Positions 1 through 26,758 are shown, counted from the first letter of the stretch. The stretch: 64,000 nucleotides of DNA from Elusimicrobia bacterium GWC2_61_19 (GCA_001799795.1 MGUD01000016.1:2105-66104), one strand, 5' to 3'. Made by a program: numbers and translations. Notes: generated from the letters alone by a model not told the origin.

Positions 1-1505
1 CCGGTCCCCAGGTCGGCCGCGCCCACCAGCAGGTTGAAGGAGCCGTCCTCGTTCATCTTCATCGTGGCGGAGGCCATGTCCACTTCCGGGATGCCCGAGC
101 CCTGCATCATGCAGGCCGCGCCTATGCCGCGGCGTATCGGTCCTTCCTGGTGGCGGTACTTGTCTTTTTTCTCGTTCCACTTTATTTCGGCGAGGCCTTT
201 TTCGATGGCCTCGAAAAGGCCGGTGGAGGTGATCACCTGCTCCACGCCTTCGCGGCCCTCGCCCATGGCCTTGAACACCGGCGACCCCTCGCCGAGCTTT
301 ATGTAATTCATCTTGCGGAATTCCACCGGGTCCATGCCGATCTTGGCGGCCATCATGTCCATCAGGCATTCCCAGGCGAAGAAGCCCTGGGTAGCGCCGT
401 AGCCGCGGTACGCGCCGGCCACCGGCATATTGGTATAAACGCTGCGGCCGATGAACTTGATATTGTTCTTAACGCGATACATCGGAATAGTGTGGGAACC
501 CGCGCACATCATGACGGTCAGGGCGTGGGAGCCGTAAGCGCCGGTATTCAGCGTTATCTCCATCTCGGCGTCGGTTATCGTGCCGTCGTTCTTTACGCCG
601 GCCTTCATGCGGCAGATGGCGGGATGGCGGGTACGCGAAGAAATAAAGGTCTCTTTCCGGGTGTATTCCAGCTTAACGGGCTTGCCGGTCTTGAGCGCCA
701 GCGCGGCCACTATATCCTCCAGCACCTCCTGCTTGGAGCCGAAGCCGCCGCCGATGCGCGGCTTTATCACGCGTATGTTTTTAACGGGGAGCTTGAGCGC
801 CTGCGCCACTATGCGGCGCACGTGGAAAGGCACCTGTGTGGAGGTCCGCAGCACCAGGCGGCCGAAGTTGTCGAAGTAAGCGATGGAAATATGCGGTTCG
901 ATGGCGCAATGCTGCAGGTAGGGGATGCTCCAGCTGTGTTCGAAGACGTGGTCCGCCTCTTTGAACCACTCGCCGTTCTTCACCTCGAAGTCGAACTTGG
1001 CGGCGATGTTATGCTTGGCGTCGGGGATGTTCTTGGAGTCGGCCTCGTCGTGGATGACCGGGGCGCCGTCCTTCATGGCCGAGGCGGTGTCCAGCACGGC
1101 CGGGAGGATCTCGTAGTCCACTTTAATTTTGGAAACGGCTTCCTGGGCGGCTTCCATCGTCTCGGCGGCCACGGCGGCCACCCTGTCGCCGACGTAGCGG
1201 ACTTTATTGTCCAGCGTGTAGGTATCGTAGGGTGACGGTTCCGGATAGCCCTGGCCTGCGGTGGTATGCGGCACGCGGGGCAGGTCCTTGTAGGTCAGCA
1301 CGGCTTTAACGCCGGGCACCTTGAGCGCCGCGGAAGTGTCTATCTTCTTTATCCGGGCGTGGGCGTGCGGGCTCCAGAGCAGCTTGGCGTACAGCAGGCC
1401 CTTGAAATCCATATCGTCGGTGAAGGCCGGCTCGCCGCAGGCGAGGCCCATGGCGTCCATTTTAATTACGGGCTGGTTTACCACTTTAAGATTTTTAGCG
1501 TCCAT
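1..1505 (-). CDS. Xanthine dehydrogenase/aldehyde oxidase-family molybdopterin-binding large subunit, set A (first ~501 codons; C-terminus lies beyond the window edge)
   Basis: Absent from the ORF track because it runs off the edge. My minus-strand translation from ATG 1505-1503 reads MDAKNLKVVNQPVIKMDAMGLACGEPAFTDD... and stays open to base 1. Family motifs IGGGFGSKQE and AYRGYGATQGFF. Starts 30 nt downstream of the 2Fe-2S subunit gene. Confidence 0.85.
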   Translation of the reverse strand, partial: MDAKNLKVVNQPVIKMDAMGLACGEPAFTDDMDFKGLLYAKLLWSPHAHARIKKIDTSAALKVPGVKAVLTYKDLPRVPHTTAGQGYPEPSPYDTYTLDNKVRYVGDRVAAVAAETMEAAQEAVSKIKVDYEILPAVLDTASAMKDGAPVIHDEADSKNIPDAKHNIAAKFDFEVKNGEWFKEADHVFEHSWSIPYLQHCAIEPHISIAYFDNFGRLVLRTSTQVPFHVRRIVAQALKLPVKNIRVIKPRIGGGFGSKQEVLEDIVAALALKTGKPVKLEYTRKETFISSRTRHPAICRMKAGVKNDGTITDAEMEITLNTGAYGSHALTVMMCAGSHTIPMYRVKNNIKFIGRSVYTNMPVAGAYRGYGATQGFFAWECLMDMMAAKIGMDPVEFRKMNYIKLGEGSPVFKAMGEGREGVEQVITSTGLFEAIEKGLAEIKWNEKKDKYRHQEGPIRRGIGAACMMQGSGIPEVDMASATMKMNEDGSFNLLVGAADLGT

Positions 1506-1535: not shown

Positions 1536-2045
1536 TTACTTCCCTTTCGTCCTGAGCCTTTTGGCCGCGTCCTTTACGGCCTCCACCTGCTTTACGTAGC
1601 CGGTGCAGCGGCAGAGGTTGCCGTCCAGCGCTTTGCGGATCTCGGCTTCGGTCGGATTCTTGTTCGAGTCCAGCAGGTGCTTGGAGGAAAGTATCATGCC
1701 CGGGATGCAGAAGCCGCACTGCACCGCGCCGGCCTCCACGAAGGCCTCCTGCAGGGGGTGCGGGTCGCGCACGGAACCGAGACCCTCTATAGTGGTAAGT
1801 TCCCCGCCGTGGGCGGTCACCGCCGGCACCAGGCAGCCCAGCACCGGCTTGCCGTTGAGCAGCACCGTGCAGGAGCCGCAGTCGCCGGTGTCGCAGCCCT
1901 TCTTGGTGCCCTTCCAGCCGTGGCGGCGCAGGGCGTCCAGCAGGAATTCCCCGTTCTTCACGGCCAATTCCTTCTTCTCGCCGTTCACACGGAGCTCTAT
2001 GTTAAAAAAGCCTTTCACCGTTTCTATCATGTCGTTCTTTTTCAT
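1536..2045 (-). CDS. [2Fe-2S]-binding small subunit of Mo-hydroxylase, set A (CoxS-like)
   Basis: 169 aa. Cys clusters CDTGDCGSC and CGFC...CRCTGY typical of this subunit family. ATG 2045 preceded by GAGG. Confidence 0.9.
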   Translation of the reverse strand: MKKNDMIETVKGFFNIELRVNGEKKELAVKNGEFLLDALRRHGWKGTKKGCDTGDCGSCTVLLNGKPVLGCLVPAVTAHGGELTTIEGLGSVRDPHPLQEAFVEAGAVQCGFCIPGMILSSKHLLDSNKNPTEAEIRKALDGNLCRCTGYVKQVEAVKDAAKRLRTKGK

Positions 2046-2055
2046 GGTTTATACC

Positions 2056-2865
2056 TCAAAGGGACTTTATAAAGCGCGCCAGCAGATTGGAGGCGGCCGT
2101 CGAGCGGTACTCCCCGGCGCGCGCTGCGTCCAGGTCCGACGCGAAGGCCTTAGAGGCGGAGGCGTCCCCGGCCAGCATGGCCTTTTCGGCGGCCGGCGCC
2201 AGGAACGGCTTGGGGGACAGCGCCCCGACGGACACTCTCGCGCGGGAGAGGGCTTTGCCTTTCTTCTCCGCGGCGAAGAAAAGGGTTATGTAGGACTCCC
2301 AGCTGGACTGCGTCCTAGCCAGTTTTATGAACTCGCACTTCCATTTCTTGGTCCTGGCGGGGATCACGATCTCGGTTATAAGGCAGTCCAGGCCGGGGCG
2401 CAGGCCCAGGCCGGAAGAGTAAAGGGCGGAGAAGTCGATAAGTTTCGTTCCACCCCGGGCCTGCAGGCGGACCTTGGCGTCCAGGCCGAGCAGCACCACC
2501 GGGAAAATATTGAACGAATGGGGGCGGGCGATATTGCCGCCGATAGTGGCCATGTTGCGCACCAGCTGGGTGGAACATTTAGAGGCCGCCGCCGAGATGA
2601 CGCCGCCGGCCCAGCTCCTGCAGAGCTTATCGCGGTCTATCTCGTCGAAGGTGGCGCCGGCGCCTATCACCAGGTTCCCCCCCGCGAGTTTTATGCCCTT
2701 GATGGGCAGGTTCTTCAGGTCCAGGTAGGTCTCAACGCTGTCGGGCAGGGTTTTGGCCACCAGCGTACCGCCGGCCAGGGCCATGGCTTTATATTTCTTA
2801 TCGAGCAGCAGCGCGACGGCGTCCTTCACGTTGGAAGGGAAAGCGTAGTATTTAATGTTTTTCAC
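2056..2865 (-). CDS. FAD-binding medium subunit of Mo-hydroxylase, set A (CoxM-like)
   Basis: The ORF-track start at 2889 is a TTG that overlaps the upstream gene by 11 nt. GTG 2865 is preceded by GGAGGA (2869-2874), so I prefer it. Motifs ALAGGT and ATIGGNIARP. Confidence 0.8.
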   Translation of the reverse strand: MKNIKYYAFPSNVKDAVALLLDKKYKAMALAGGTLVAKTLPDSVETYLDLKNLPIKGIKLAGGNLVIGAGATFDEIDRDKLCRSWAGGVISAAASKCSTQLVRNMATIGGNIARPHSFNIFPVVLLGLDAKVRLQARGGTKLIDFSALYSSGLGLRPGLDCLITEIVIPARTKKWKCEFIKLARTQSSWESYITLFFAAEKKGKALSRARVSVGALSPKPFLAPAAEKAMLAGDASASKAFASDLDAARAGEYRSTAASNLLARFIKSL

Positions 2866-2878
2866 GGGTCCTCCAGTT

Positions 2879-4588
2879 TTATTTCTCAAAATACGGGTGC
2901 GGCAGGTAAGGCTGCCGGTCGGGTTTGGTCTCCGTCGGCTTGAGTTCCATTTCCTGCACCAGCAGCGCCGACGGGGCCACTATGGACGCGGGCACATAAC
3001 CGCGGTTATAGTAGAAAGGGCCCGGCTGAAAATAGTTATATACGTAATCCTTATCCGAAACCAGCAGGATATCCCGCAGCGCCCTGAAAGTTACGCCAGC
3101 CCACTCGGAAAGCCCGATGACGGTCTCGGAGCCGTCTTTCACGCTTACCTTGTAGGCGAGCACCGGACCGGCCAGCAGGTCTTCGGTTTTCTTCTGGTCC
3201 TCGGGGTCCAGGCGGCGCACCAGCACCGCGTAGTCCAGGCCGCTTTCGGCCGCCATGGCCAGCAGTTTCTTCTTCAGTTCGGCCTCGGGCACGCGCTTCT
3301 CCGCCTGGGCGGTGAAGAACAGGCTGCCGGGGCGCGGCGCGGGGAACTCGTTGACGAAGCCGCGCGCGTGGCCGTTGGAGACGGCGTATTCCTTTACCGG
3401 GGCGCGGCCCATATAGAAGTTAACGAGCTTGCCGTTGCGGACGAGTTCGAGCGGCGCCGGCTTCACGCCCTCGTTATCGATGGGATAGCTGCCGTTGAGA
3501 CGCACGCCGTTATAGGAAACCTCCAGCGGGTTGTCCGTGACGTTCATAAAGGCCGGCAGCACGCGCATATTAAGCTTCTTGGTCAGCTCGCCCGAGGCGA
3601 TATAATAGCGCAGCCAGTCGTCGCGGTCCGCCCAGGGCTTGCGGGCGAAGGAAATATTGCCGACGAAGATCTGGTTGAGGAATTCGGCGGCGGCCTGGTC
3701 CTCGAACATCACCGGCCCGAGATAGACCTCGGCCGTGGAAGAGTCCACTATATAGCTCATATCCCTGGCGAACGCCTCCGTCTGGGCGGCCAGCTCGTCG
3801 TAGGACGGCACGTCGGCCAGGGAACGCCAGGCCAGGGTTTTCGCGTCGGCGATCTTATAGCCCGCGCGGTCCTGCACGGTGGCCCTGATATCAAGGCTAA
3901 CCTTGTCCCACCAGTAGCGGTAGGCCGTCCCCTCGCTGTTGACGAAGCGCGCCGTGCGCAGCGTCCGGCTGAAGTTCACCTGGGAGCCCTGCACCTTGGG
4001 GTACTTGCGGAAAATGCCGGAAAGCCCGCGGACCTTCTCGCGCCAGGCGTCGGCGTCGAAAGCCTCGGCGCTTTTCCGGTCGTCGAAGAAAGTCTCTTTT
4101 TTAGCGGGGGCAAGGTCGCCGTAGAGCTCGGTTATGTTCTTTTTTTTCTGGTAGGCCTTCTTCTGGGAATATTTTTCCAGCGCCTTCTTATAAACGTCGT
4201 CGGTCAGGGACCAAAGGGCGAAGCGGATGGCGTCGTAGCCGTCCTCCTCGTTAAGGGAGGCGGAACCGGGCTCGTAGCCGTTGAAATCCTGCCCCACATA
4301 GTCCGAATTGTCGAAAGCCGGGCTGCCCACGCGCAGGTCCGCCATGGCGTTACGCGAGACGCTGGCGGTATCGTCGCGCAGGGACCCGAACACGCCGGAG
4401 ATGGCGTTCTCGGTGGAGTCGATGACATAATAGGACACGAAGTACGGCCTGTCGAGGTTGTCCATCTTAAGGCGCTGCACGGTGCGCTGCATTTCGTCCG
4501 TCATGGCCTTAAGCACCACGTCGTCGGCCGCCGCGGCCGGGGACGCCGCGGGCAGGAGCAGGGCCAGAATAAAGAGGTATTTTTTCAT
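2879..4588 (-). CDS. Exported TldE/PmbA-like protein (TldD/PmbA fold, no HExxxH)
   Basis: 569 aa. N-terminal Sec-type signal MKKYLFILALLLPAASPAAAADD. The C-terminal half aligns by eye with the upstream paralog (IDNEGV...LVRNGKL...SNGHARG) but lacks the metal-binding HExxxH and the GxCG motif. Confidence 0.7.
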   Translation of the reverse strand: MKKYLFILALLLPAASPAAAADDVVLKAMTDEMQRTVQRLKMDNLDRPYFVSYYVIDSTENAISGVFGSLRDDTASVSRNAMADLRVGSPAFDNSDYVGQDFNGYEPGSASLNEEDGYDAIRFALWSLTDDVYKKALEKYSQKKAYQKKKNITELYGDLAPAKKETFFDDRKSAEAFDADAWREKVRGLSGIFRKYPKVQGSQVNFSRTLRTARFVNSEGTAYRYWWDKVSLDIRATVQDRAGYKIADAKTLAWRSLADVPSYDELAAQTEAFARDMSYIVDSSTAEVYLGPVMFEDQAAAEFLNQIFVGNISFARKPWADRDDWLRYYIASGELTKKLNMRVLPAFMNVTDNPLEVSYNGVRLNGSYPIDNEGVKPAPLELVRNGKLVNFYMGRAPVKEYAVSNGHARGFVNEFPAPRPGSLFFTAQAEKRVPEAELKKKLLAMAAESGLDYAVLVRRLDPEDQKKTEDLLAGPVLAYKVSVKDGSETVIGLSEWAGVTFRALRDILLVSDKDYVYNYFQPGPFYYNRGYVPASIVAPSALLVQEMELKPTETKPDRQPYLPHPYFEK

Positions 4589-4592
4589 AGGG

Positions 4593-6275
4593 TCACCTGT
4601 CCGTGAAAGGCGGCTTGAGCACGGGCGGCCTGGCGTTGGACTTCTGCACTTTCTCCGTTTCCATTTCCGAGAACAGCAGGCTCGGGGAGACGGCGGAAAC
4701 CGGCACCCAACCGGACTCGGCCCCGCAGGAGCCGTTGAAAACGCCGTAATCGTCGCCGGTGACCAGTATGCGCCCGAAGGTCTGCAGCGGGGTGCCTATC
4801 AGGTTCAGCCCGCGCACGGGCTCGTCGGGGCGGCCGTCCGCGAACACCTTGTACCCCTGCGTGACCTGCACGGAGAAGCTCTGCGGCAGGGAGCGCTCGG
4901 TGATGGTGAAGCCGCCGGAAATATCGGTCACCACCAGCCCGTAGGGCTTCCCGGCCTTTTTGGCCTCTTCGATAAGCCGCTTACGCAGCTCGGCGTAAGG
5001 CAGGGTCTTCGAGGAAACGGCTATCAGGTTCCCCTGGCGCGCCACGGCCCCGTTGCCTTCGGAACGGCGCCCGTGCCCGTTGGAAGCCTGGAAATTCTTT
5101 ATCGGGGACCGCCCCATCAGGAAGCCCTTAAGGATCCCGTTCTCCACCAGCACGGCCCGCTGCGCGGGCATTGCCTCGTCGTCGTAGCGGTAGAACCCCC
5201 GCAGGAACTGGGCGCCCTGCCTGTACAGCGTAGGGTCGTCGTAAACGGACAGGAATGCCGGCATTATCGGCTGGCCGACCATCTTGGCGAAGGTCTGCCC
5301 CGACTCCTCGCTCTTCTGGCGGTGCCCTTCCAGGCGGTGGCCCAGGATCTCGTGGAAGAAGACGCCGGCGGCGCGGCTTTCCAGCAGCACCGGGCCGCTG
5401 TAGGGCTGCTCGGGCGGCGCGTTTTTCTGCGCTTTAAGCGCCGCTATCGAAGCGTCTATGTCTTTGGCGATAACGGCTTCGTCGGGGATCTCGCCGGGTT
5501 TATCGGAATCGTAGATCTTAACGGTGGACAGGTCCATGCCGTCGGCCGTGCGCGTATAAAGGGAATAGATGAACCTGATATAGGTATTCCCCGTGACTAT
5601 GGCCGAACCTTCCGAATTGACCATATAGCGGTTCACGGTGTCAGCCGAGAACCGGACCGTCGAGTCGTAGATAAAATCACAGGGCTTGAACTTTTCCGAC
5701 AGGCGGCGGGCCATGGAGCGGAGTTTAGCTTTGTCGAAGGCCGGGAAAACGGCCTTTTCATAGAAGGCCTCCGGCTTACCGGCGGTGAAGTCGTTGGACT
5801 TATCCTCTTCCTCCGCCGTGACGCTCTTGTTCATTTTGACCTTGGCGTACTGGTCGAGCGCGGTCTTGTAAGCCCGGTCGGTGAGGTTCCAGATCTCGGC
5901 GCGCAGCGGGGCCGGGGCGTCCTCCACCGGCAGGCCAAAAACCTCCTGCCGCTTGGAGTTATAGGCGCCGCCGCCTTTCATCTCGTGCGTATTGTCCAGG
6001 GCATAGGAACCGATCCGCACGTCCACGTCCAGCAGGCGGCTGCGCCTGGCGTCCTCGCTGTAAACGGTGCCCTCCTGGGCCGAAAGGCTGTAGGAGGTTT
6101 TATCGTACGCCTCGTAGCCGATGTAATAAAGCGGGGACGGCTCGGCGTTCTTGAGTTTCTGGGCGGAACGGTTAAGCTCGGTTTTCAAAGCTTCCAGCAG
6201 GGGGTCGGAGGCGGCGGGCTGGGCGCTTACGGCGCAGGGCAGCGCCAGCAGGACGGCGGCGATCAGTTTTTTCAT
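4593..6275 (-). CDS. Exported TldD-like metalloprotease
   Basis: ATG 6275 chosen (GGAGAA 5 nt upstream); the ORF-track start at 6290 is a GTG. Signal peptide MKKLIAAVLLALPCAVSAQP. TldD metal site FHEILGHRLEGH (HExxxH) and C-terminal NGSCGAESG. Confidence 0.8.
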   Translation of the reverse strand: MKKLIAAVLLALPCAVSAQPAASDPLLEALKTELNRSAQKLKNAEPSPLYYIGYEAYDKTSYSLSAQEGTVYSEDARRSRLLDVDVRIGSYALDNTHEMKGGGAYNSKRQEVFGLPVEDAPAPLRAEIWNLTDRAYKTALDQYAKVKMNKSVTAEEEDKSNDFTAGKPEAFYEKAVFPAFDKAKLRSMARRLSEKFKPCDFIYDSTVRFSADTVNRYMVNSEGSAIVTGNTYIRFIYSLYTRTADGMDLSTVKIYDSDKPGEIPDEAVIAKDIDASIAALKAQKNAPPEQPYSGPVLLESRAAGVFFHEILGHRLEGHRQKSEESGQTFAKMVGQPIMPAFLSVYDDPTLYRQGAQFLRGFYRYDDEAMPAQRAVLVENGILKGFLMGRSPIKNFQASNGHGRRSEGNGAVARQGNLIAVSSKTLPYAELRKRLIEEAKKAGKPYGLVVTDISGGFTITERSLPQSFSVQVTQGYKVFADGRPDEPVRGLNLIGTPLQTFGRILVTGDDYGVFNGSCGAESGWVPVSAVSPSLLFSEMETEKVQKSNARPPVLKPPFTDR

Positions 6276-6293
6276 TTTATTCTCCGGCACGGA

Positions 6294-7136
6294 TCAAGAC
6301 TGAAAAGAATCAAGGGCGCGCTCAAGCAGCACGCCGCACATTTCCCGGCGGTAGTCGGCGGCGCTGCGGGCGTCGGTTATCGGCGAAACCTCGGCTTTTA
6401 CCAGGGCCGCCGCGTCCCTTATCACTTCAGGGGACAGCTTTTTTCCGGCCAGCCAGGCGGAAGTCTTTACGGCGTAAAGCGGCACCGGGGCCACGGAGCC
6501 CAGGGCGATGCAGGCCAGCTTAACCGCTCCGCCCGACAGTTCCACGGAAACGGCGACCGCGGCCTTGGAAATGCCGAAATAAGCGCGCGGCCCTATTTTG
6601 AGGTAGGCCCCGAGGTGCTTGCGTTTGGGGATCTCGAAAGCCGCGATAATTTCGTCTTTTTTCAGCGCGGTGCGCTTGGGGCCGAGGAAAAGGTCTTTGA
6701 GCGGCAGGCGGCGCCGCTTGCCTTTAAGCGCGAGGTGAACGAAAGCCCCCTCCGCCACCAGGGCGGTCACGCCGTCGGCGCAGGGGCTGCCGTTGGCGGC
6801 GTTGCCGCCGAGGGTGGCCATATTGCGCAGACTGGGGCTGGCGAAATGGGGTATGGCGGCCAGCAGCGCCGGGCACCAGCGGCGGGCGGCCGCGGACTTT
6901 TCTATAGCGGAGATCTTTACGCAGGAACCGATAAAAATGGAGGAAGCCGTTTCTTTTATCCCGCCGAGCTCGGGGAGGTCGCTGATATCTATCCAGCATT
7001 CGGACCGCTCGACGCCGGCATTGTCGGCGGTAACGATGTCGGTGCCGCCGGCCAGGTAACGCCGGTTGCGGCTCAGCCCGGGGAGGGTTTTCCAAAGTTC
7101 TTTCAGAGTGGCGGGCTTTACGATTATTTCAGGCAT
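6294..7136 (-). CDS. FAD-binding medium subunit of Mo-hydroxylase, set B
   Basis: ATG 7136 chosen (MPEIIVKPATLKEL...). The 34-codon extension in the ORF track would overlap the 2Fe-2S gene. Motifs LAGGTDIV and ATLGGNAANGSP. Confidence 0.85.
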   Translation of the reverse strand: MPEIIVKPATLKELWKTLPGLSRNRRYLAGGTDIVTADNAGVERSECWIDISDLPELGGIKETASSIFIGSCVKISAIEKSAAARRWCPALLAAIPHFASPSLRNMATLGGNAANGSPCADGVTALVAEGAFVHLALKGKRRRLPLKDLFLGPKRTALKKDEIIAAFEIPKRKHLGAYLKIGPRAYFGISKAAVAVSVELSGGAVKLACIALGSVAPVPLYAVKTSAWLAGKKLSPEVIRDAAALVKAEVSPITDARSAADYRREMCGVLLERALDSFQS

Positions 7137-7161
7137 GATCTTAGGTGAAAATTGCGCCCAA

Positions 7162-7644
7162 CTATTTCGCCGTTTTCGCTTTTTCCACGGCGGAAAGCAC
7201 CTTCTCGTAGCCGGTGCAGCGGCAGAGGTTGCCGGCAAGTTCCAGTTTTATATCTTCAAGCGTGGCCTTGGGGTTACGGCGGAGCAGCGCCTCGGAGGCG
7301 ATTATCAGCCCGGGGGTGCAGAAACCGCACTGCACGGCGCCCTCGGCCATGAAAGTTTTTTGCAGGGGATGCAGGCCGCCATCCTTGCCTTTGATCCCCT
7401 CTATGGTAACGAGTTCTTTGCCGTGCAGCTGCACGGCCATCATCAGGCAGGAGTTGACGGCCAAGCCGTCCACCAGCACCATGCAGGCCCCGCACTCGCC
7501 CTCGCCGCAGCCTTCCTTGGTGCCCTTCAGCCCCAGGTCCTCGCGGATGAAATCAAGCAAAGAGCGGGAGGATGGTATCTCCCGCTCTACTTTGTGGCCG
7601 TTTACAAGGCAGGAAAGGCCGAAGGTGGCTGTTTTCGAAGTCAT
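7162..7644 (-). CDS. [2Fe-2S]-binding small subunit of Mo-hydroxylase, set B
   Basis: 160 aa. Cys clusters CGEGECGAC and CGFC...CRCTGY. ATG 7644 preceded by AAGGA. Confidence 0.9.
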   Translation of the reverse strand: MTSKTATFGLSCLVNGHKVEREIPSSRSLLDFIREDLGLKGTKEGCGEGECGACMVLVDGLAVNSCLMMAVQLHGKELVTIEGIKGKDGGLHPLQKTFMAEGAVQCGFCTPGLIIASEALLRRNPKATLEDIKLELAGNLCRCTGYEKVLSAVEKAKTAK

Positions 7645-7659
7645 CGTCCTTGCGCCGGT

Positions 7660-8958
7660 CTAGAAGTCGAAGCCCATGCCCACTATGAATTTAACGCCGC
7701 TCAGGACTATAGAATCGGATTCGCCGCTGACGCCGCCGCGGTCGAAGCTTATGCTGTTGAGCTCATAGCGCAGTTCCGCTACCAGCTGCGTCTTCTCGGC
7801 GATCTTCATGCGCAGGCCGACCGGGATCCTGAACATGAAACCAAGCCCCATGTCTTCGGTGGGCCTGACAAAGGAACCGTTGGTAAAGCCCTTAACGTAA
7901 GGCAGTTCGATGGAATTCAGCGACAGACCGAGGCCTATGCCGAAGTAGGGGTCCACTTTTTTGCCGGCGTGGCGGATAAGCAGGTCGCCGCTTATGCCGA
8001 AGGTCTTGACCGTGGCGTAATCGTTGGAAGTGAACGTGAAATTACCGGGCGCGCCGCCGTTGAGCGACCAGGTGGTATCCTGCGCCGCTATATTGCGCTT
8101 CTCATAGGAAAGTTCGATGTCTCCGCCCAGGGCGCCCTTACCGAAGCCGCCCACGCGGAAAGCTATGGGGCCGACGCCTTCGGTCTTAAGTTTATCCCAG
8201 GTAACCGTTCTGTAATCCGCATGGCCGATAATGCTGTTCAGGTCGATGCCCAGGTCGTTGTTGGTATCACCGGGCAGGTTGCTCAGGGTGATATTCCCGT
8301 TGGCGTTGGAGAATTCCAGTTTCATGTCGGGCGCGCCGAAACCCATGAATATGTCGAAGAAGCCATACTCGTGTTCGCCGCGGGCGACGGGCGCGCGCAT
8401 GGGAGCGGCGGCTGCCGGCTGCTGATAGGCGGGCTGTTGGTAAGCCGGCTGCTGGGGAGCGGTGGCAGCGTCGCCGACCCAGTTCTTGTCCAGCGTCACC
8501 TGCGAGGCGCCGATGGCCTGCGCGGTCTCGGTCTTTATCAGGCGGGCGTTAACCTCTATCTGGCCGCCGGAAGTCTCTACCAGGGTGCCGGTCACGATGG
8601 CTTCCACGCCCAGCACCTTGCCCAGTTGCTGCGCGCTGGAGGCGTCTATGGTGCCGGAGGCCTGCAGTTTCAGTTCGGCCATCACCTTGTCCAGCACGGA
8701 GCGCTCGATGATCTCGAACTTGTGCATATTGATCATCTTTATGGTGAGACGCTCGGAAATTACAGAGCCGTCCTTGGTAGCGCCGGCCCTGCCGTCGGCG
8801 TAGGAAAAGGGGATTATGGCTATTTTTTTGCCCTGGATCGAGGTCCCGGCATCCGTAATTTCATTTGCCAGCTGCTGATACCCGTCCATCGCATAGGCGC
8901 CTGCGGTAAAAGCCAGGAACAGCATGCCAGCAAAAAACGCTTTGATGATATTTTTCAT
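7660..8958 (-). CDS. Outer-membrane protein: signal peptide + FlgO/CsgG/LpoB-like periplasmic domain + Q/P/A-rich linker + C-terminal beta-barrel
   Basis: 432 aa. Signal MKNIIKAFFAGMLFLAFTAGAYA. N-domain KKIAIIPFSY...ERSVLDKVMAELKLQASG...GVEAIVTGTL resembles FlgO/CsgG-type domains. Linker QQPAYQQPAYQQPAAAAP. The C-terminal third has alternating hydrophobic strands and ends GMGFDF (terminal Phe, an OMP signature). Confidence 0.6.
   Translation of the reverse strand: MKNIIKAFFAGMLFLAFTAGAYAMDGYQQLANEITDAGTSIQGKKIAIIPFSYADGRAGATKDGSVISERLTIKMINMHKFEIIERSVLDKVMAELKLQASGTIDASSAQQLGKVLGVEAIVTGTLVETSGGQIEVNARLIKTETAQAIGASQVTLDKNWVGDAATAPQQPAYQQPAYQQPAAAAPMRAPVARGEHEYGFFDIFMGFGAPDMKLEFSNANGNITLSNLPGDTNNDLGIDLNSIIGHADYRTVTWDKLKTEGVGPIAFRVGGFGKGALGGDIELSYEKRNIAAQDTTWSLNGGAPGNFTFTSNDYATVKTFGISGDLLIRHAGKKVDPYFGIGLGLSLNSIELPYVKGFTNGSFVRPTEDMGLGFMFRIPVGLRMKIAEKTQLVAELRYELNSISFDRGGVSGESDSIVLSGVKFIVGMGFDF
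8413..8454 (-). repeat. Imperfect 15-nt tandem repeat (about 2.8 units) encoding QQPAY-QQPAY-QQPA in the OMP linker
   Basis: Minus-strand units cagcagccggcttac / caacagcccgcctat / cagcagccggca, read directly. In frame and coding. Confidence 0.85.
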
Positions 8959-8972
8959 TATTTTTCCCTCGA

Positions 8973-11252
8973 CTAACCCTTTTTTATTTCATTCCAGATC
9001 TTTTCCGGCAGCAACGGCACCGATCTTACCCTGGCGCCGCAGGCGTTCTTGATCGCGTTGGCTACAGCCGGCGCTACGCCGATAAGCGGCACCTCACCCA
9101 TGCCTTTGGCCTTATAAGGCCCCTCGGCGTAGGGTTTCTCTATGAAAATTATATCATATTCGGGTTTATCTGCGGTAGTAGCTATGACGTAGTCGGTGAA
9201 ATTGGGGTTCACCATGATGCCGTTCTTGTAGACCAGGTTCTCGAACATGGCCCAGCTCATGCCCTGCAGGATGCCGCCCTGGGCCTGGCCCATGGCGAGC
9301 CGCGGGTTCACTATTTTACCCACGTCGTAGGCGGCCCAGATCTTTTTAACTTTGGCCACGCCCGTCCTGAGATCTACTTCCACCTCGGCCGCGTCGGCCG
9401 AATACGAGTAGATAACGTAGGCGTCGCCCTGGCCGTCCTCCATCTTGAAGGTGGTCCTGGGGGCGGCGTACCAGCCCTGCTCGCTCATCTTCTGGCGGCG
9501 GTCCCAGCAGCCGGCCGCCACTTTCTTAAAATCCACTACTTTGCCGCCCATCGAGAACAGGCCGCCGGCGGCCAGCATCGGCTTGGAGGCGTCCGCCCCC
9601 TCGGCGATGAGCATGTCGTAGGCGGTCTTAAAAACGCGCTCCCTGATAGGCGTGGCGGCCTCTATGATGGCGTTGCCGCTCATCAGCGTGGTGCGGCTGG
9701 CCACGGTGGGCCCGGAGTCCGGCACCTTGGAAGAGTCCACTTCCTCCACCCGCACGCTGTCGTACGGGGCGTTGAGCGTCTCCGCGGTTATCTGGGCCAG
9801 CACGGTCAGCGCGCCCTGCCCCATTTCGGTGTTCCCGACATTAACGGTAACCGAGGAATCTTTATAGACGTTCACAAAAGCGCCGGCCCTGTCCAGATAG
9901 CGGCCCTTGGCGCCCAGGCCCACGCCGTAGTAAGTGGCGGAAAAGCCGATCCCGGTAACCACGTCGCCCTGACGTTTCGGGCTAAGCACTTTCTTGTCCC
10001 AACCGGAACGGCGCTTCACGGCCTGCACCACTTCCTTTAGGCCGCAGGAGGAATTAAGTTTCTGGCCGGTAATGGTCTTATCGCCGGGCGCTAGCAGGTT
10101 GTTCAGGCGGAACTGCACCGGGTCCACCCCTACTTTTTCCGCGAGTTCGTCTATAAGCGATTCCTGCGCGAAGCAGATCTGCGGCTGGCCGAAGCCGCGG
10201 AAAGCGCCGCACGGCACTTTATTGGTGGCCGCGGCGTAAGTCTGTATATCCACGTTAGCTATTTTGTAGGGACCGGCGGCGTGCACCGTGCCGCGCCACA
10301 GCACTATAGGCGACAGCGTGGAGTACGCCCCGCCGTCCAGCACGTACTTAACGCGGCAGGCGGTGATGCGGCCGTTCTTGTCGGCGGCATAGGCCACCCT
10401 GGCCCAGCCGGGATGCCGCTTGGACATGCTCTGAAAATCTTCCTTGCGCCCGTAAATAAGCTTTACCGGGCGGCCTGTCTTGGCGGCGCACAGCGCGGCG
10501 TGCGAGGCCACCAGGGCGGGCACGTCTTCTTTGCCGCCGAAGCCGCCGCCGGTAACCGTCTGGAGTATTTTTACTTTATGATAGGGCAGGGCGAGCGCCG
10601 CCGCGACCGCGTCCAGCACGTAGAAAGGACACTGCGTGGAACTGTGCACGGTCATACCGCCGTCGGCTTCGGGCACGGCCACCGCGCCCTGCGTCTCGAG
10701 GTAGGCGTGCACCTGGTAATTGGTGGAGAATTCCCCCTCCACCGTAAAAGCGGCTTTTTCGAAAGCTTTATCCACGGCGCCTTTTTTTATGACGAAGCTG
10801 GAGACGATATTGTCTTTGCCGTAGATCTTTACCGAGCCCTTTTCCAAAGCTTTAAGCGGGTCCGCCACCGAAGGCAGTTCCTTGTACTTTATCTCGACCA
10901 GGGCGGCGGCTTTTTTGGCCGCGCGGGCGCTGTCGGCCACCACCAGGGCCACGGTCTCGCCGGCGAAGCGGGCTTCGCCCTGGGGCAGGAAAGGGTAATC
11001 CTGCATGACGACCGGCCACTTATTGACGCCTTTTATATCCTTGTATGTGACTAAAGTTACATAGCCAGGCACCCGGCGGGCGGCCTTATCGGAGATGGAG
11101 AGTATTTTAATCCTGGGCCGCGGGGAACGGACGGCGGCGGCGTGCAGCATACCGGCGAAGTCCCTGTCGGCCGCGTACTGCGCCCTGCCTGTCGCCTTGA
11201 TCAGCGCGTCCTTCCTCGGCAGCGATTTCCCGACGAATGAAAGTTTTTCCAT
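8973..11252 (-). CDS. Xanthine dehydrogenase-family molybdopterin-binding large subunit, set B
   Basis: 759 aa. Motifs GGGFGGKE, AFRGFGQPQ and GMGEVP, the positions equivalent to Glu802, Arg880 and Glu1261 of bovine XDH. No twin-arginine signal at the N-terminus (MEKLSFVGKSLPRKD). Confidence 0.9.
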   Translation of the reverse strand: MEKLSFVGKSLPRKDALIKATGRAQYAADRDFAGMLHAAAVRSPRPRIKILSISDKAARRVPGYVTLVTYKDIKGVNKWPVVMQDYPFLPQGEARFAGETVALVVADSARAAKKAAALVEIKYKELPSVADPLKALEKGSVKIYGKDNIVSSFVIKKGAVDKAFEKAAFTVEGEFSTNYQVHAYLETQGAVAVPEADGGMTVHSSTQCPFYVLDAVAAALALPYHKVKILQTVTGGGFGGKEDVPALVASHAALCAAKTGRPVKLIYGRKEDFQSMSKRHPGWARVAYAADKNGRITACRVKYVLDGGAYSTLSPIVLWRGTVHAAGPYKIANVDIQTYAAATNKVPCGAFRGFGQPQICFAQESLIDELAEKVGVDPVQFRLNNLLAPGDKTITGQKLNSSCGLKEVVQAVKRRSGWDKKVLSPKRQGDVVTGIGFSATYYGVGLGAKGRYLDRAGAFVNVYKDSSVTVNVGNTEMGQGALTVLAQITAETLNAPYDSVRVEEVDSSKVPDSGPTVASRTTLMSGNAIIEAATPIRERVFKTAYDMLIAEGADASKPMLAAGGLFSMGGKVVDFKKVAAGCWDRRQKMSEQGWYAAPRTTFKMEDGQGDAYVIYSYSADAAEVEVDLRTGVAKVKKIWAAYDVGKIVNPRLAMGQAQGGILQGMSWAMFENLVYKNGIMVNPNFTDYVIATTADKPEYDIIFIEKPYAEGPYKAKGMGEVPLIGVAPAVANAIKNACGARVRSVPLLPEKIWNEIKKG

Positions 11253-11262
11253 ATTGGGCCTC

Positions 11263-12075
11263 TTACTTGCGGCTGTGCGCGTCGCGCATATGCGCCCCGT
11301 CCCGCTTATAGTGCACCTTTATCATTTCGGCCAGCACGGAAACGGCTATTTCCCCCGGCGCCTTGCCGCCCAGGTTCAGCCCTATGGGCGAATGCACCCG
11401 CGCGTCCTTTAAGGGATAAAGCTTTTTCCCGGCGAGCAGGCGGAAGATCTCGGCCACCTTGTCCTTGCTGCCTATCATGCCGATGTAGGCCGCGTCCGTA
11501 CGCATCAGGGCTTCCAGGCATTCCCTGTCCAGGGCGTGCCCGCGCGTGACTATTACCGCGTAGGTATCTTTATCCACTCCGGCCGCGGCCACCGCTTTGT
11601 GCGGGGCCTCGTTTATTATCGTCAGCGCTCCGGGGAAGCGCCCGGCGTTGGCGAACTCTTCCCTGTCGTCGGCCACCAGGTAGGGATACCCCGCCAGGCG
11701 GCAGGCTTCGGCTATCTTGACGCCCACGTGGCCGCCGCCGAGTATCAGAACTTTCAAAGGATTCCTGTACACGTCGATGTAGACTTCCATATCCCCCATG
11801 CAGATCATGCCGGTATTGCCGCCGGGCTTCAGGTCGAAGACGAATTTACCGCCCTCGCCTTTTTTAAGGCAGGCAACGGCCTGTTTTATGGTGAGGGCCT
11901 CTATAGAGCCGCCGCCTACCGTGCCCTCTATGGCGCCGTCGGCGTACACCAGCATTTTGGCGCCGGCCTCGCGCGGGGTGGAGCCGCCCACGGAGATAAC
12001 TGTGACGAAAGCGGCGCTGCGGCCGGAATCGATGGCCTCGGAAAGCATTTTGATCAGGTTCTTGTTTTCATTCAT
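11263..12075 (-). CDS. xdhC: XdhC/CoxI-family Mo-cofactor insertion/maturation protein
   Basis: 270 aa. GGSTPREAGAKMLV N-domain and Rossmann-like ILGGGHVG C-domain, typical of XdhC. Immediately upstream of the set B large subunit. Confidence 0.85.
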   Translation of the reverse strand: MNENKNLIKMLSEAIDSGRSAAFVTVISVGGSTPREAGAKMLVYADGAIEGTVGGGSIEALTIKQAVACLKKGEGGKFVFDLKPGGNTGMICMGDMEVYIDVYRNPLKVLILGGGHVGVKIAEACRLAGYPYLVADDREEFANAGRFPGALTIINEAPHKAVAAAGVDKDTYAVIVTRGHALDRECLEALMRTDAAYIGMIGSKDKVAEIFRLLAGKKLYPLKDARVHSPIGLNLGGKAPGEIAVSVLAEMIKVHYKRDGAHMRDAHSRK

Positions 12076-12094: not shown

Positions 12095-13636
12095 TTACAA
12101 TACTTTGTAGATCTCCACCGGTTCGGCCTTTCCCTTCAGCGCGGCCTTGCCCATGGCTTCGAATTTAAACGTTTCCCCGAGCGAACCGCGGGCCCTTTCC
12201 AGGGCGGGGCCGCTCACCAGGATATCCGTATTGAAGTCCTTGGTCCTGGATTCCAGCCGGGAGGCGATATTGACCGTGTCGCCGATGAAAGTGTACTCAA
12301 GGCGGGAGACGGTGCCGATATTGCCGCCCACCAGCTTGCCCGAGTGTATGCCTATGCCGAAATCCACCAGCCCGGGAGTTTTTCCCGCGGCGTTGAACTC
12401 GGCCAGGGCTTTCCTCATCCCTACCGCCGCGCGCACCGCGTCGGCCGCGTAGTCGTCCGAGCCCAGCAGCGGGGTATAGATCGCCATTACGGCGTCGCCG
12501 ATGAACTTGTTGATCACGCCGTGGTTGGCGGTGATAGGCGGGGTTATATAATGGAAATAATTATTAAGGAACTCCACCAGCATGGAGGCGCTCATCTTCT
12601 CGCTCAGGGGGGTAAAATTGCGGATGTCGCAGAACATCACCGCGGCTTCCATATCCTCGCCGCCCAGGTTCACTTTCTTGTTCTTTATCAGCTCCCGGGC
12701 GATCTCTATGGACAGGTACTTGCCGAAAGTGTCCTGCAGCGCCTCGCGCTCTTTCAGCCCGTCGACCATGTCGTTAAAACCCGCCTTCAGGTGCGCTATC
12801 TCGTCGGAGAAGAAGACATGCGTTTTAACGAACTCGCCGCCGGCCACGCGCCGCATCTTGCCGATGAGCCCGTCAAGCGGCACTTGTATGCCGTTATAGA
12901 CCGTGGAAACCCCCGTCAGGAGCAGCACGCCGCACAGGAAGAGCATGAGGCCGAAATCCCCGGCAAAAGTGTCCCACGGCACCCGGTTCAGGAAAAGCAG
13001 GTAGATCAGCACGAACGGGATAATGGCGAAACCTATGACGAGCGAGGAGATCTTCAGGTAGATGGGGATGGAGAACCCGGGCCGCAGGCTGGACAATTCC
13101 TCCGATGAGTAAAGACTGACCATGAGCTTCTTCTGTCTGGAAAGATGGGCGTCTATGTGGGCAATAAGCAGGGCGGCCTGCCCCGCGAAGGCGACACCCG
13201 ACGCCGCCCAGATCTGCCAGGGCAGAGCGCCGAACAGCATTATAGGTAAAGCCAGCGCCAGGCCCTGCGATATCACCAGCATCAGGAAAGCGTCGCGGTA
13301 GATGTTGCCCAGCCGCCTGCGGATCTTTGCCTTCAGTTTCTCGTCGGGTTTGCGGACATACAGATAGGCCGGCCTCGCCCAGACATAGACCATCAGGACC
13401 ATCACGATGAACGGCAGGCCTATATTCAAACCCTGATGACCGGGGCCCATGCCGATGTTCAGCGCCCCGCCTCCGATGTTGGGATCACCGGACAGGGCGA
13501 CCATGGTTATACGGTAGAAGGAAGAGTAGATGAACCCGAGGAATAGCGGGATGTAGAGGAGGCTGAAGAACTCTCTCAGCTTCTCTTTGCGCGCAGCTTT
13601 TTCAGGATCGCCGAACAATATGATGTCGCCTTTCAT
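12095..13636 (-). CDS. Membrane-bound HAMP-domain class III adenylate/guanylate cyclase
   Basis: Internal ATG 13636 chosen (MKGDIILFGDPEK...); it overlaps the stop of the upstream permease (ATGA). The 183-codon upstream extension in the ORF track is Arg/Gly-rich and lies inside the permease gene. Multiple TM segments, then cyclase motifs FCDIRNFTPLSE, KFIGDAVMA, GDTVNIASRLE. Confidence 0.85.
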   Translation of the reverse strand: MKGDIILFGDPEKAARKEKLREFFSLLYIPLFLGFIYSSFYRITMVALSGDPNIGGGALNIGMGPGHQGLNIGLPFIVMVLMVYVWARPAYLYVRKPDEKLKAKIRRRLGNIYRDAFLMLVISQGLALALPIMLFGALPWQIWAASGVAFAGQAALLIAHIDAHLSRQKKLMVSLYSSEELSSLRPGFSIPIYLKISSLVIGFAIIPFVLIYLLFLNRVPWDTFAGDFGLMLFLCGVLLLTGVSTVYNGIQVPLDGLIGKMRRVAGGEFVKTHVFFSDEIAHLKAGFNDMVDGLKEREALQDTFGKYLSIEIARELIKNKKVNLGGEDMEAAVMFCDIRNFTPLSEKMSASMLVEFLNNYFHYITPPITANHGVINKFIGDAVMAIYTPLLGSDDYAADAVRAAVGMRKALAEFNAAGKTPGLVDFGIGIHSGKLVGGNIGTVSRLEYTFIGDTVNIASRLESRTKDFNTDILVSGPALERARGSLGETFKFEAMGKAALKGKAEPVEIYKVL

Positions 13637-14871
13637 GTATACCTCAGGAAAACCCAGTATATTATGGCATTTATAAAAGTCAGCGGGATCCCGACGCGGG
13701 CGAACTCCATGAAGGTTATGGTCGCCCCGGTTTTTTTCTCCGCGGTCTGTATGATTATCACGTTGCTGGCCGCGCCCAGGATGAACAGGTTCCCCGCAAA
13801 AGTGGAGGCCGCCGCCAGCGCCATCAGTGCCGGCGTCCCGGCCCCGGCGTGCCGCAGCAGCGGCAGGTAAAGCGCCACCAGCGGCACATTGGAGATGAAC
13901 TGGCTCAGGCCCACGCTGATGACCATCACGGGCCCGAGCCCGGCGAGATCGGCGCCGGAGCGCGAGATAAGCCCCTGAAAAAAGCCGGTATCCCAGACGG
14001 CGCGCATCAGTACGAACATGCCGGCGAAAAAGGCCAGCGTGCTCCAGTCGGTCTTGCGCAGGATCTCGAAACGCCGGGGGCTGAAAAGAAGCCCCGGCGC
14101 GGCCGCGGCCAGCGCTATCCAGGTAAGCCGGAAATCCCAGGCGGGGTTGACGGCGACAAGCGCGATCTTGGCGGTTATCATGCACGCCAGCACCGCCGCG
14201 GTCAGGCGCGCCAGCCGCGCCAGCGCCTGGTCCTTTATCGGTTCCTGAGAATGCGTAAGGCGTACCTTCCTGAATTCCTGTCTGTAGAAGTACCGCAGGA
14301 GCAGGAAAACGAAACCCAGGTTGATGAGCGTGGGAACGGCGAGATATTTAAAAAAGGTAAGGAAAGGCGCGGCGATCTCCCCCTTAACGGCCACCAGCAG
14401 GTTCTGCGGGTTGCCGATGGGGCTCATCACGCTGCCGACGGTGACGGAGAAAGCCAGGGCCAGCAGCAGCGCCTTGGGGGAGAAGGCATGCTTGCGGGCC
14501 AGCAGCAGCGCCACCGGCGTGCCTATTATGGCCAGCGTATCGTTCATCAGGAAGGCGGAGGCGAGGCCCATGAAGAAGACCATTATCAGCAGCAGCCCCT
14601 CTTCGGTCTTTGCCCGCTTAAAGATCCCGAACTTGGCGTGGGCCAGCCAGCCGCTGAGTTCCAGCGTCTGCCCGGCGGCGAACATGCCGAACAGAAAAAG
14701 CATAACGTCCCGGTCCACGGCGTCCAGAGCGGCGGCCGGTCTTATGCCGCCGGTAAGCAGGACGGCGGCCGCGCCGGCGCACATCACCTGCCAGATCTGG
14801 AAGCGCAAACGCCCCACCTGCCGCACGGCGGTGAGGAGGAACACGACGGCAAGTATTATTATCGGCAGCAT
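13633..14871 (-). CDS. ArsB/NhaD-superfamily (CitMHS/SLC13-like) anion permease
   Basis: 412 aa, polytopic throughout. LMNDTLAIIGTPV and SPIGNPQNLLVA motifs are typical of this permease superfamily. Confidence 0.7.
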   Translation of the reverse strand: MLPIIILAVVFLLTAVRQVGRLRFQIWQVMCAGAAAVLLTGGIRPAAALDAVDRDVMLFLFGMFAAGQTLELSGWLAHAKFGIFKRAKTEEGLLLIMVFFMGLASAFLMNDTLAIIGTPVALLLARKHAFSPKALLLALAFSVTVGSVMSPIGNPQNLLVAVKGEIAAPFLTFFKYLAVPTLINLGFVFLLLRYFYRQEFRKVRLTHSQEPIKDQALARLARLTAAVLACMITAKIALVAVNPAWDFRLTWIALAAAAPGLLFSPRRFEILRKTDWSTLAFFAGMFVLMRAVWDTGFFQGLISRSGADLAGLGPVMVISVGLSQFISNVPLVALYLPLLRHAGAGTPALMALAAASTFAGNLFILGAASNVIIIQTAEKKTGATITFMEFARVGIPLTFINAIIYWVFLRYT

Positions 14872-14887
14872 TTCGTGGAAGCAGTGT

Positions 14888-15481
14888 CTAAACGAGGCCC
14901 GCGTAATCCTCCGGCGTGTCGAAGTCCCTGATTATCTCCGGGTCCTTCACTTCCAGGTCGGTTATCTTTACGGAGGGATGATGCGTCACCCAGTGCAGGC
15001 CCTTGTCCGGCGGTCCCTCGAAGCAGAGCGCCTTGTGCGCAGCCGGTATTATTATCGGGTGCCCCCGCTTCAGGCGCGCATCCGCGGCCCTGAAAGTGCG
15101 GGGAACAACTATGGACTCCTTGTTGGAAAGCCAGCAGTCCATGATCTTTTTGTAGGTTTCCGGGGCCACGGTGGGCTGGTCGGCCAGGCAGACCATAAAA
15201 CCTTCGGAGAAGTCCGACGCGGCCGCCAGGCCGCAGCGCAGGGAAGAAAGCTGGCCGTTCTCCGGCTTGGGATTGACCGCTACCTTTTCCCCCGCCGGCA
15301 CCCAGGCGGACAAGATTTCATGCGAGGCCCGCCCCAGCACCACCACGCGGTCCTCCACGCCGGCCGCCCTCAGGGCCGCGCAGACATGCTCGATAAAGGG
15401 CTTACCCCGCCATTGAAGCAGGGCTTTAGGGCGTCCCATCCTGGACGATTCTCCCGCCGCAAGTATTATCGCCGAGATCAT
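14888..15481 (-). CDS. mocA: MobA-like nucleotidyltransferase, probably molybdenum cofactor cytidylyltransferase (MocA-type)
   Basis: 197 aa. N-terminal ILAAGESSRMGRPKALL signature. The MCD cofactor made by MocA is the one used by XDH-family enzymes, which fits the neighbouring genes. Confidence 0.75.
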   Translation of the reverse strand: MISAIILAAGESSRMGRPKALLQWRGKPFIEHVCAALRAAGVEDRVVVLGRASHEILSAWVPAGEKVAVNPKPENGQLSSLRCGLAAASDFSEGFMVCLADQPTVAPETYKKIMDCWLSNKESIVVPRTFRAADARLKRGHPIIIPAAHKALCFEGPPDKGLHWVTHHPSVKITDLEVKDPEIIRDFDTPEDYAGLV

Positions 15482-15487
15482 AGCCGT

Positions 15488-16591: not shown

Positions 16592-16612
16592 ATATTCCCC
16601 CCTTCCCCTGTT

Positions 16613-17989: not shown

Positions 17990-18081
17990 CGTGGTCTCCG
18001 GAAATTTCAGTTCTTTAAATATTATAGTAAAATTAAAATTAGCACCGGTTTGCACGGATATTAAACAACTGGGGACGAATC
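17990..18081. promoter_or_regulatory. AT-rich divergent intergenic region between the 8-oxoG-deaminase-like gene and the DPD-like gene
   Basis: 92 bp, clearly AT-rich against the GC-rich background (ttctttaaatattatagtaaaattaaaatt). Contains TATAGT at 18023-18028. No convincing -35 element. Confidence 0.35.
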
Positions 18082-20538: not shown

Positions 20539-20540
20539 CC

Positions 20541-24755: not shown

Positions 24756-24811
24756 AGGTGCAAAACCTCTTTATTTATGAGAAAATATATAGACACCCAA
24801 GGAGCGTGACC

Positions 24812-26746: not shown

Positions 26747-26758
26747 AAGGATATTACC

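Follow-up and report, generated by a model that had tools for sequence, protein, structure and literature searches.

In a 64,000-nucleotide stretch of a groundwater metagenome-assembled genome (MAG) contig from Elusimicrobia bacterium GWC2_61_19 (hereafter the window, in which all positions are counted unless a relative is named), two adjacent genes encode a TldD-like and a TldE/PmbA-like protein, both with N-termini resembling Sec-type signal peptides, and lie between the subunit genes of two xanthine dehydrogenase (XDH)-family molybdenum hydroxylases. We consider it probable that the two proteins form an extracytoplasmic TldD/E zinc peptidase pair, which is co-regulated with the XDH genes but mechanistically independent of them. 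The pair belongs to a large, long-form (~560 amino acids) exported branch of MEROPS family M103, whose members occur as two genes or as one fused gene. Its features are:

4593–6275, minus strand: TldD-like catalytic subunit, predicted exported precursor, 560 amino acids (PF19289, PDB 5nj5, AlphaFold/Foldseek)
6222–6275, minus strand: predicted Sec signal peptide of the TldD-like protein, residues 1–18, MKKLIAAVLLALPCAVSA, cleavage before Q19 (heuristic, homologues)
5337–5354, minus strand: HEILGH metal-binding/catalytic motif (H308 E309 ... H313), by alignment to E. coli HEAVGH, residues 262–267
4722–4733, minus strand: GSCG motif with the third metal ligand, C517, by alignment to E. coli TldD Cys454
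2879–4588, minus strand: TldE/PmbA-like non-catalytic partner, predicted exported precursor, 569 amino acids (PF19289, paralogy)
4526–4588, minus strand: predicted Sec signal peptide of the PmbA-like protein, approximately residues 1–21, MKKYLFILALLLPAASPAAAA (heuristic, homologues, fusions)

Public annotation of this contig, made independently, has the same 560- and 569-amino-acid products, and the TldD-like protein is 100% identical to one from the GWC2_61_19 MAG; the window contains no further TldD-like gene. The TldD-like gene begins at ATG 6275, with a ribosome-binding site (RBS; GGAG) about 8 nt before it that is kept in relatives, and no ATG, GTG or TTG lies between this ATG and the conserved mature start at residue 24; the hydrophobic segment must therefore be translated. 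ATG 4588 of the PmbA-like gene is preceded by AGGTG at about 7 nt and lies 4 nt past the previous stop, whereas a GTG at codon 24 lacks an RBS and was rejected as a start, leaving neither gene with a better start downstream of its hydrophobic segment. A preliminary description of the window had given the intergenic gaps as 3, 4 and about 13 nt. The latter two stand (4 nt between the two genes, and 13 nt from the PmbA-like TAA at 2879–2881 to the GTG of the downstream FAD-subunit gene at 2865), but the first is actually 18 nt, from the stop of the upstream FAD-subunit gene (6294–6296) to ATG 6275; the shorter figure arose because it was measured to an upstream GTG at 6290 and not to the ATG that the same description took as the start.

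The proposed family assignment holds for both proteins, as the PmbA/TldD C-terminal domain (PF19289) matches the TldD-like protein at E = 1.5e-31 and the PmbA-like protein at E = 4e-13. In alignment with E. coli TldD (PDB 5nj5, E = 2e-19), HEILGH of the TldD-like protein falls on HEAVGH and GSCG on GVCG, with H308, E309, H313 and C517 opposite H262, E263, H267 and C454; the four residues are invariant among 53 aligned homologues. The E. coli enzyme is an active/inactive heterodimer with metal on TldD only, held by His, His and Cys ligands and accompanied by a catalytic Glu (PMC5810440). The PmbA-like protein aligns with the TldD-like protein over its full length (28% identity, E = 5e-49) and carries NQIFVG and GPFYYNRG at the metal-motif positions, so that, as first described, only the upstream paralogue keeps both motifs. 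This division recurs at all loci examined, where gene 1 has the metal motifs and gene 2 has none, bar one chance HEEPAH string.

Structural comparison points the same way. The AlphaFold model of the TldD-like protein (predicted local distance difference test, pLDDT, 86.7) has E. coli TldD as its top Foldseek match (E = 1e-30, TM-score 0.76, ~540 columns), and TldD, TldE or PmbA chains account for all of its 16 best PDB matches (E = 1e-30 to 5e-22, TM-score 0.71–0.78); identity in the structural alignment with canonical TldD is 18%. The Pfam TldD N-terminal and middle domains gave no sequence match, and the N-terminal 260 residues of the TldD-like protein are covered by the predicted fold alone. 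Because the model matches E. coli TldD over its full length, these residues are best modelled as a diverged TldD N-terminal region and not as a new domain. NCBIfam equivalog scores lie far below cut-off (64.8 vs 513 bits for TldD, NF008006; 18.3 vs 438 bits for PmbA, NF008268), and the public database names ('metallopeptidase TldD-related protein' and 'peptidase U62') are family-level annotation only. The pair thus belong to the family without being equivalogs of E. coli TldD and PmbA.

The branch also has sequence features of its own. Flanking the metal site are residues R314–H318 (5322–5336, minus strand; HEILGHRLEGHRQK) and A519–E520 (4716–4721, minus strand; CGAESG), and nearby R314, H318, R319, Q320, K321 and E520 are invariant or nearly invariant in the subfamily. 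Where E. coli TldD has D272 and K456, whose salt bridge tethers a clamp, the protein here has H318 and A519, with E520 adjoining the latter, a change that may represent a re-wired tether or an extra metal ligand. Pro-rich C-terminal tails are conserved on both paralogues (4593–4640 and 2879–2925, minus strand): the TldD-like tail reads ...KSNxKPPxLKPPFxD, in which K545, P551, L553 and P556 are invariant and P550 nearly so, and the PmbA-like tail reads ...RQPYLPHPYFEK. The Pro-rich tail has low confidence in the monomer model and is ordered at the junction of a fusion model (see below), and may be an arm by which one subunit embraces the other.

Evidence for export comes from the N-termini, which we assessed with a heuristic combining a basic n-region, the best nine-residue Kyte–Doolittle window (KD9) and a small-x-small cleavage site. 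The TldD-like protein opens with MKK, then LIAAVLLALPCAV, then SA|Q, giving a basic n-region, a 13-residue h-region and a V-S-A site, while the PmbA-like protein opens with MKK, then YLFILALLLPAA, then SPAAA|ADD. Their KD9 values are 3.26 and 2.98, respectively; the E. coli TldD control reaches 2.04, at an internal helix, and has no N-terminal hydrophobic segment, its first helix corresponding to residues 24–41 of the TldD-like protein. Comparison among homologues carries more weight than this heuristic. Approximately 110 of 120 homologues (51–100% identity) have a signal-like N-terminus, the sequence of which drifts freely while its character is kept, and throughout this set the segment directly precedes the conserved mature start DPLL.AL..EL.RS. 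Signal-like N-termini are found on both genes at ~80 species-level loci from about a dozen phyla. Within the TldD-like model, pLDDT drops below 50 at residues 14–20, the stretch that separates the signal helix from the fold's first helix. The most telling evidence is a natural experiment: among 49 natural single-chain fusions of the two proteins, 47 keep the hydrophobic N-terminus and only one has such a segment at the junction. Given the drift among homologues, the drop in model confidence and the loss of the signal at fusion junctions, the hydrophobic segments act like targeting peptides that lie outside the fold, and the Sec-type signals initially proposed for both proteins are well supported as predictions. 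A lipoprotein (signal peptidase II) signal on the TldD-like protein, sought as [LVI][ASTVI][GAS]C, was rejected, as the candidate site is A-L-P-C with Pro at −1 and the Cys is absent from many homologues. We found no description of an exported or periplasmic TldD/PmbA protein in the literature searched, whose coverage did not extend to a 2022 review of the family, where an earlier mention is possible.

The two genes are also tightly associated with each other. Immediately downstream of gene 1, ~73 of 79 loci have a motif-less paralogue, and a profile search of 1.84 billion representative proteins, in which fusions were scored as proteins of at least 1,000 amino acids with two matched stretches, recovered fusions of both halves as 58 of the best 150 representative hits. 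Such fusions (P0241–P0372, and at loci L009, 6760–9696, and L053) are ~1,090–1,190 amino acids long, with one N-terminal signal and a short polar linker. All of the aligned fusions (n = 49) have exactly one HExxGH, and in 48 of them the PmbA-like signal segment is missing at the junction, where the C-terminal tail of the first half passes through the linker to a second half that opens at the conserved mature sequence. The model of one fusion, P0241 (1119 amino acids; pLDDT 90.8, predicted TM-score, pTM, 0.88), places the halves relative to each other with confidence, and its structural matches are only to TldD, TldE and PmbA chains, the best being E. coli TldD and TldE-type (PmbA) chains. The fusions support both export and a 1:1 complex, and by analogy with the E. 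coli enzyme the TldD-like and PmbA-like proteins would form a 1:1 heterodimer. The division of the motifs between gene 1 and gene 2, the frequency of fusions and the pTM of the fusion model all favour the active/inactive heterodimer that was originally predicted.

This pair is by no means confined to the window. Scanning one genome per species, we found a relative in at least 583 species-level genomes. The best 80 loci, which were examined individually, are 44–80% identical over the full length and span about a dozen phyla, including Elusimicrobia, Ignavibacteria, Eisenbacteria, Zixibacteria, Acidobacteriota, Planctomycetota, Verrucomicrobia, Melainabacteria, Myxococcota, Calditrichota and WOR-3; gene order is nearly always active then inactive, both with signal-like N-termini. 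The profile search returned 1,994 clusters (50% identity) at E <= 1e-30, partner paralogues counted. Outside the XDH-linked group and closely related genomes, all-against-all clustering of neighbouring open reading frames (ORFs) at 86 loci revealed no conserved neighbour besides the partner, and at 52–53% identity the pair stands alone. The exported pair is an old, autonomous two-gene unit, present in many phyla, and the suggestion that it is special to a molybdenum hydroxylase operon must be abandoned. Because it is so widely distributed without conserved neighbours, a general rather than a specialised substrate is suggested. Two of the loci have titles that seem at odds with the tree, L074 (titled Flavobacterium psychrophilum) and L041 (titled Actinomycetota); the L074 protein has near-identical counterparts in the Obscuribacterales MAGs L086, L060 and L084, as might be expected of a bin that is contaminated or carries the wrong label.

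Every gene in the window's first ~21 kb lies on the minus strand. The genes that surround the pair are:

11263–12075, minus strand: XdhC-type Mo-cofactor insertion chaperone (PF02625, PF13478)
8973–11252, minus strand: Mo-binding (molybdopterin) large subunit, upstream set (PF01315, PF02738, PF20256)
7660–8958, minus strand: predicted exported FlgO/CsgG/LpoB-like protein with a C-terminal beta-barrel (Pfam CsgG, FlgO, PagL)
7162–7644, minus strand: [2Fe-2S] subunit, upstream set, without Tat or Sec signal (PF01799, PF00111)
6294–7136, minus strand: FAD-binding subunit, upstream set, 280 amino acids in the public call, without signal peptide (PF00941, PF03450)
2056–2865, minus strand: FAD-binding subunit, downstream set, GTG start preceded by GGAGG, 269 amino acids in the public call (PF00941)
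1536–2045, minus strand: [2Fe-2S] subunit, downstream set (PF01799, PF00111)
1–1505, minus strand: Mo-binding large subunit, downstream set, running off the window, 769 amino acids on the full contig (PF01315, PF02738)

The best NCBIfam match of the upstream large subunit is pucD, at 538 bits under a cut-off of 784 bits. None of the six XDH subunits carries a twin-arginine translocation (Tat; RR plus hydrophobic) or Sec signal, and XdhC has no Tat signal; KD9 of the subunits is at most 2.4, with no basic-then-hydrophobic start. Periplasmic XDH enzymes were rejected on this basis, and the hydroxylases are predicted to be cytoplasmic, in agreement with the preliminary description. A potential terminator hairpin ahead of the TldD-like gene (6335–6315, minus strand) was discarded, as it lies inside coding sequence and is not conserved in relatives; terminator-like sites number 16 against a shuffled expectation of 18.3. 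We found no significant promoter or terminator between the pair and the flanking genes, and since the 4–18 nt gaps are also conserved, the pair is likely co-transcribed with the XDH genes.

On the public contig, glnA and then a TolC/MFP/MacB-type efflux set lie beyond the cluster. In the opposite direction (12095–21866), the window encodes a membrane adenylate/guanylate cyclase, a CitMHS transporter, a MobA-like nucleotidyltransferase that probably serves the Mo cofactor, a phosphofructokinase (PFK) and two amidohydrolases (16613–18055, minus strand; 20526–21866, plus strand). The PFK/MobA-like/CitMHS/cyclase block is largely syntenic in L001, L090, L091 and L092, with an amidohydrolase also in L090 and L091. 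Taken together, the amidohydrolases, Mo-cofactor genes and glnA suggest a locus for the catabolism of N-heterocycles or nitrogen. Farther along (24758–28030, plus strand), the gene after that for aconitase encodes an ATP-citrate-lyase-type subunit (Citrate_bind + Citrate_synth_N), an arrangement that may mark a reductive tricarboxylic acid cycle in this Elusimicrobia MAG. Long ORFs antisense to the cluster (plus strand, 2855–4606, 4458–7148 and 7066–8976; 583–896 amino acids) have no family matches and are artefacts of the 61% G+C content.

How far does the XDH association extend? The full 10-gene order recurs at TldD-like identities of 78%, 65% and 58%, with differing flanking genes, and in further species as well, so that the neighbourhood is conserved in relatives down to 58%. 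Of the idea that signal-peptide pairs might recur beside XDH genes elsewhere, one part holds, as such pairs are widespread, but adjacency to XDH genes is confined to a sub-group of the Elusimicrobia, which can itself dispense with it. In a neighbour-joining tree, XDH-linked proteins form a main clade (13 species and the window) and a small second clade; in addition, a distant Elusimicrobia genome (L080) has XDH genes 1.5 kb downstream of the pair, and Zixibacteria L055 has a Mo-subunit gene near it in divergent orientation. Within the linked group the composition of the locus varies: in L010, L012, L014 and L090, XdhC, the FlgO/CsgG-like protein and the pair are followed directly by one XDH set, while L091 and L092 have XdhC, the FlgO/CsgG-like protein and XDH genes without the pair. 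Because the XDH locus exists without it, the protease pair is a facultative resident there. Nor is the downstream set orthologous across the whole clade, as its Mo subunit is only 56% identical to that of the window in L001 (TldD-like identity 78%; 13541–17234) and 80% identical in L003 (TldD-like identity 65%; 13482–17185). Since the closer relative has the less similar Mo subunit, the downstream set has apparently been replaced by a paralogous set at the same position.

The gene for the FlgO/CsgG-like protein (7660–8958, minus strand) separates the Mo-subunit gene of one XDH enzyme from its FeS-subunit gene. The protein has a predicted signal peptide (AYA|M), a Pro/Gln-rich PQQPAYQQPAYQQP linker and a beta-barrel ending in ...GMGFDF, and relatives occur in L001 (7314–8639), L090 (9001–10179), L091 (9001–10338) and L092 (9001–10302). 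Its family comprises only 178 hits, for which every given source name is Elusimicrobia, and XdhC is its neighbour in all contexts seen, whether the protease pair is there or not. As a general component of the protease module it was rejected, as it stays with XdhC and XDH genes where the pair is missing and is absent where the pair occurs in other phyla. This outer-membrane protein is tied to the XDH locus, not to the protease.

We propose the following model. Both subunits would be made with a cleavable Sec signal and exported; the lineage being diderm, the periplasm is their most likely destination. In that compartment the TldD-like subunit, which is the catalytic one (HEILGH and Cys517), would pair 1:1 with the motif-less TldE-like subunit. 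In E. coli, both TldD and TldE are needed for activity, and the shell that they form admits only unfolded peptides (PMC5810440; PMC10885120); by analogy, the heterodimer here would be a closed shell of the same selectivity, and its likely job would be to break down, irrespective of sequence, oligopeptides or unfolded polypeptides within the cell envelope. Embedding among XDH genes would then reflect co-regulation in a catabolic locus for nitrogen-rich substrates, and not mechanistic dependence.

Several observations should temper this model. The Pfam-silent N-terminus and sub-cut-off NCBIfam scores mean that function may have diverged from that of the E. coli enzyme; peptidase activity across the branch is assigned by analogy with E. 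coli; and both the cleavage of the signals and the place where the proteins end up (periplasm, outer membrane or secreted) are deduced from a heuristic and from comparison. Moreover, XDH linkage turns up in two or three places on a crude tree and keeps its tight spacing down to 58% identity, a pattern that may reflect more than chance placement. That the protease and the XDH enzymes are directly linked in mechanism nonetheless seems doubtful to us. In the specific form of such a link, the pair, possibly with the outer-membrane protein, would free or let in an N-heterocyclic substrate at the envelope, for instance from a peptide or acyl conjugate, and the two XDH-type enzymes would hydroxylate it in the cytoplasm. 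The conserved 10-gene order and tight spacing amid changing flanks speak for such coupling, as do the retention of the pair beside XdhC, the outer-membrane protein and an XDH set after loss of the upstream set (L010, L012, L014, L090) or where the downstream set is a distant paralogue (L001), the recurrence of linkage in two clades plus the L080 and Zixibacteria L055 cases, and the action of TldD/E homologues in the processing of peptide-nucleotide antibiotics (PMC10885120). However, at more than 60 loci from many phyla outside the Elusimicrobia group there is no XDH neighbour, the XDH locus with XdhC and the outer-membrane protein also exists sans pair (L091, L092), the ~18 genes of the region are all co-directional, which makes adjacency weak evidence, and the cluster has no dedicated inner-membrane transporter; we therefore regard coupling as unlikely. 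A more elaborate version, in which the TldD/E heterodimer and the Elusimicrobia-specific FlgO/CsgG-like protein together make up an envelope module that frees or lets in an N-heterocycle, for instance from a peptidyl or acyl conjugate, for the two cytoplasmic hydroxylases, strikes us as distinctly unlikely, although, if true, it would amount to an envelope-to-cytoplasm catabolic route of a new kind, centred on TldD/E.

Two other alternatives concern the enzyme itself. That some TldD/E homologues are reportedly N-deacetylases (Vobruba et al. 2022, by its title, as cited in PMC10885120) also weighs against a peptidase, and raises the prospect that the complex is an exported amidohydrolase of other specificity. 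Its large divergence from canonical TldD in the structural alignment and its own set of invariant residues around the metal site would suit this, but the complex shares its HExxxH and Cys catalytic triad and its overall fold with the peptidase, and a broad distribution without conserved neighbours fits a housekeeping substrate, for instance peptides, better than a specialised metabolite; on balance we think a change of specificity very improbable. Still harder to credit is that the N-terminal segments are uncleaved signal anchors tethering the enzyme to the outer face of the inner membrane. While cleavage is a prediction and some homologues have longer hydrophobic N-termini, the h-regions here, at 12–13 residues, are too short to span a membrane, small-x-small sites (V-S-A, A-A-A) are followed by a helix-breaking, variable c-region, and the fusions tolerate loss of the second segment.

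If the extracytoplasmic peptidase model is right, the family would contain a second, extracytoplasmic TldD/E class of ~2,000 clusters in at least 583 species, many of them single-chain forms, and a candidate for a self-compartmentalised, ATP-independent periplasmic protease. Its chief interest lies in this unstudied, phylum-spanning class and its fusions, the latter being handy constructs for structural and biochemical work, and then in the association with XDH genes and the outer-membrane protein, which offers a concrete but weak lead to the substrate in Elusimicrobia.

Among known systems, E. coli PaoABC resembles this locus in that an XDH-family enzyme is linked with the cell envelope, and we considered on that account whether the whole cluster might be periplasmic. 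PaoA carries a Tat signal, unlike any of the six XDH subunits of the window, and the best PaoA/PaoC NCBIfam scores here are far under cut-off. A second parallel is with antibiotic-biosynthesis N-deacetylase pairs: a 2022 paper by Vobruba et al., judging by its title, reportedly includes N-deacetylases among TldD/E homologues, and work on lincosamide LmbIH/LmbQ is said to bear on them. These pairs too are two-paralogue TldD/E-type complexes inside a metabolic cluster, but are cytoplasmic and belong to secondary-metabolite clusters, whereas the pair here is predicted to be exported and mostly occurs without a cluster.

The closest comparison remains E. coli TldD/TldE itself, a representative of a family that is found in most bacteria and nearly all archaea, whose physiological role is unclear and which has been studied solely as a cytoplasmic enzyme (PMC5810440). 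Active/inactive pairing is typical of this family and not new, because canonical TldD/E is already such a heterodimer, and the proteins described here share with it the fold, an HExxxH motif and distal Cys on one subunit only, and a motif-less paralogous partner. They differ in that the mature proteins are ~60–90 residues longer, that both paralogues bear a Pro-rich C-terminal tail which E. coli TldD lacks, that the genes can be described as always adjacent or fused, and that both subunits have predicted Sec-type signals where E. coli TldD has none.

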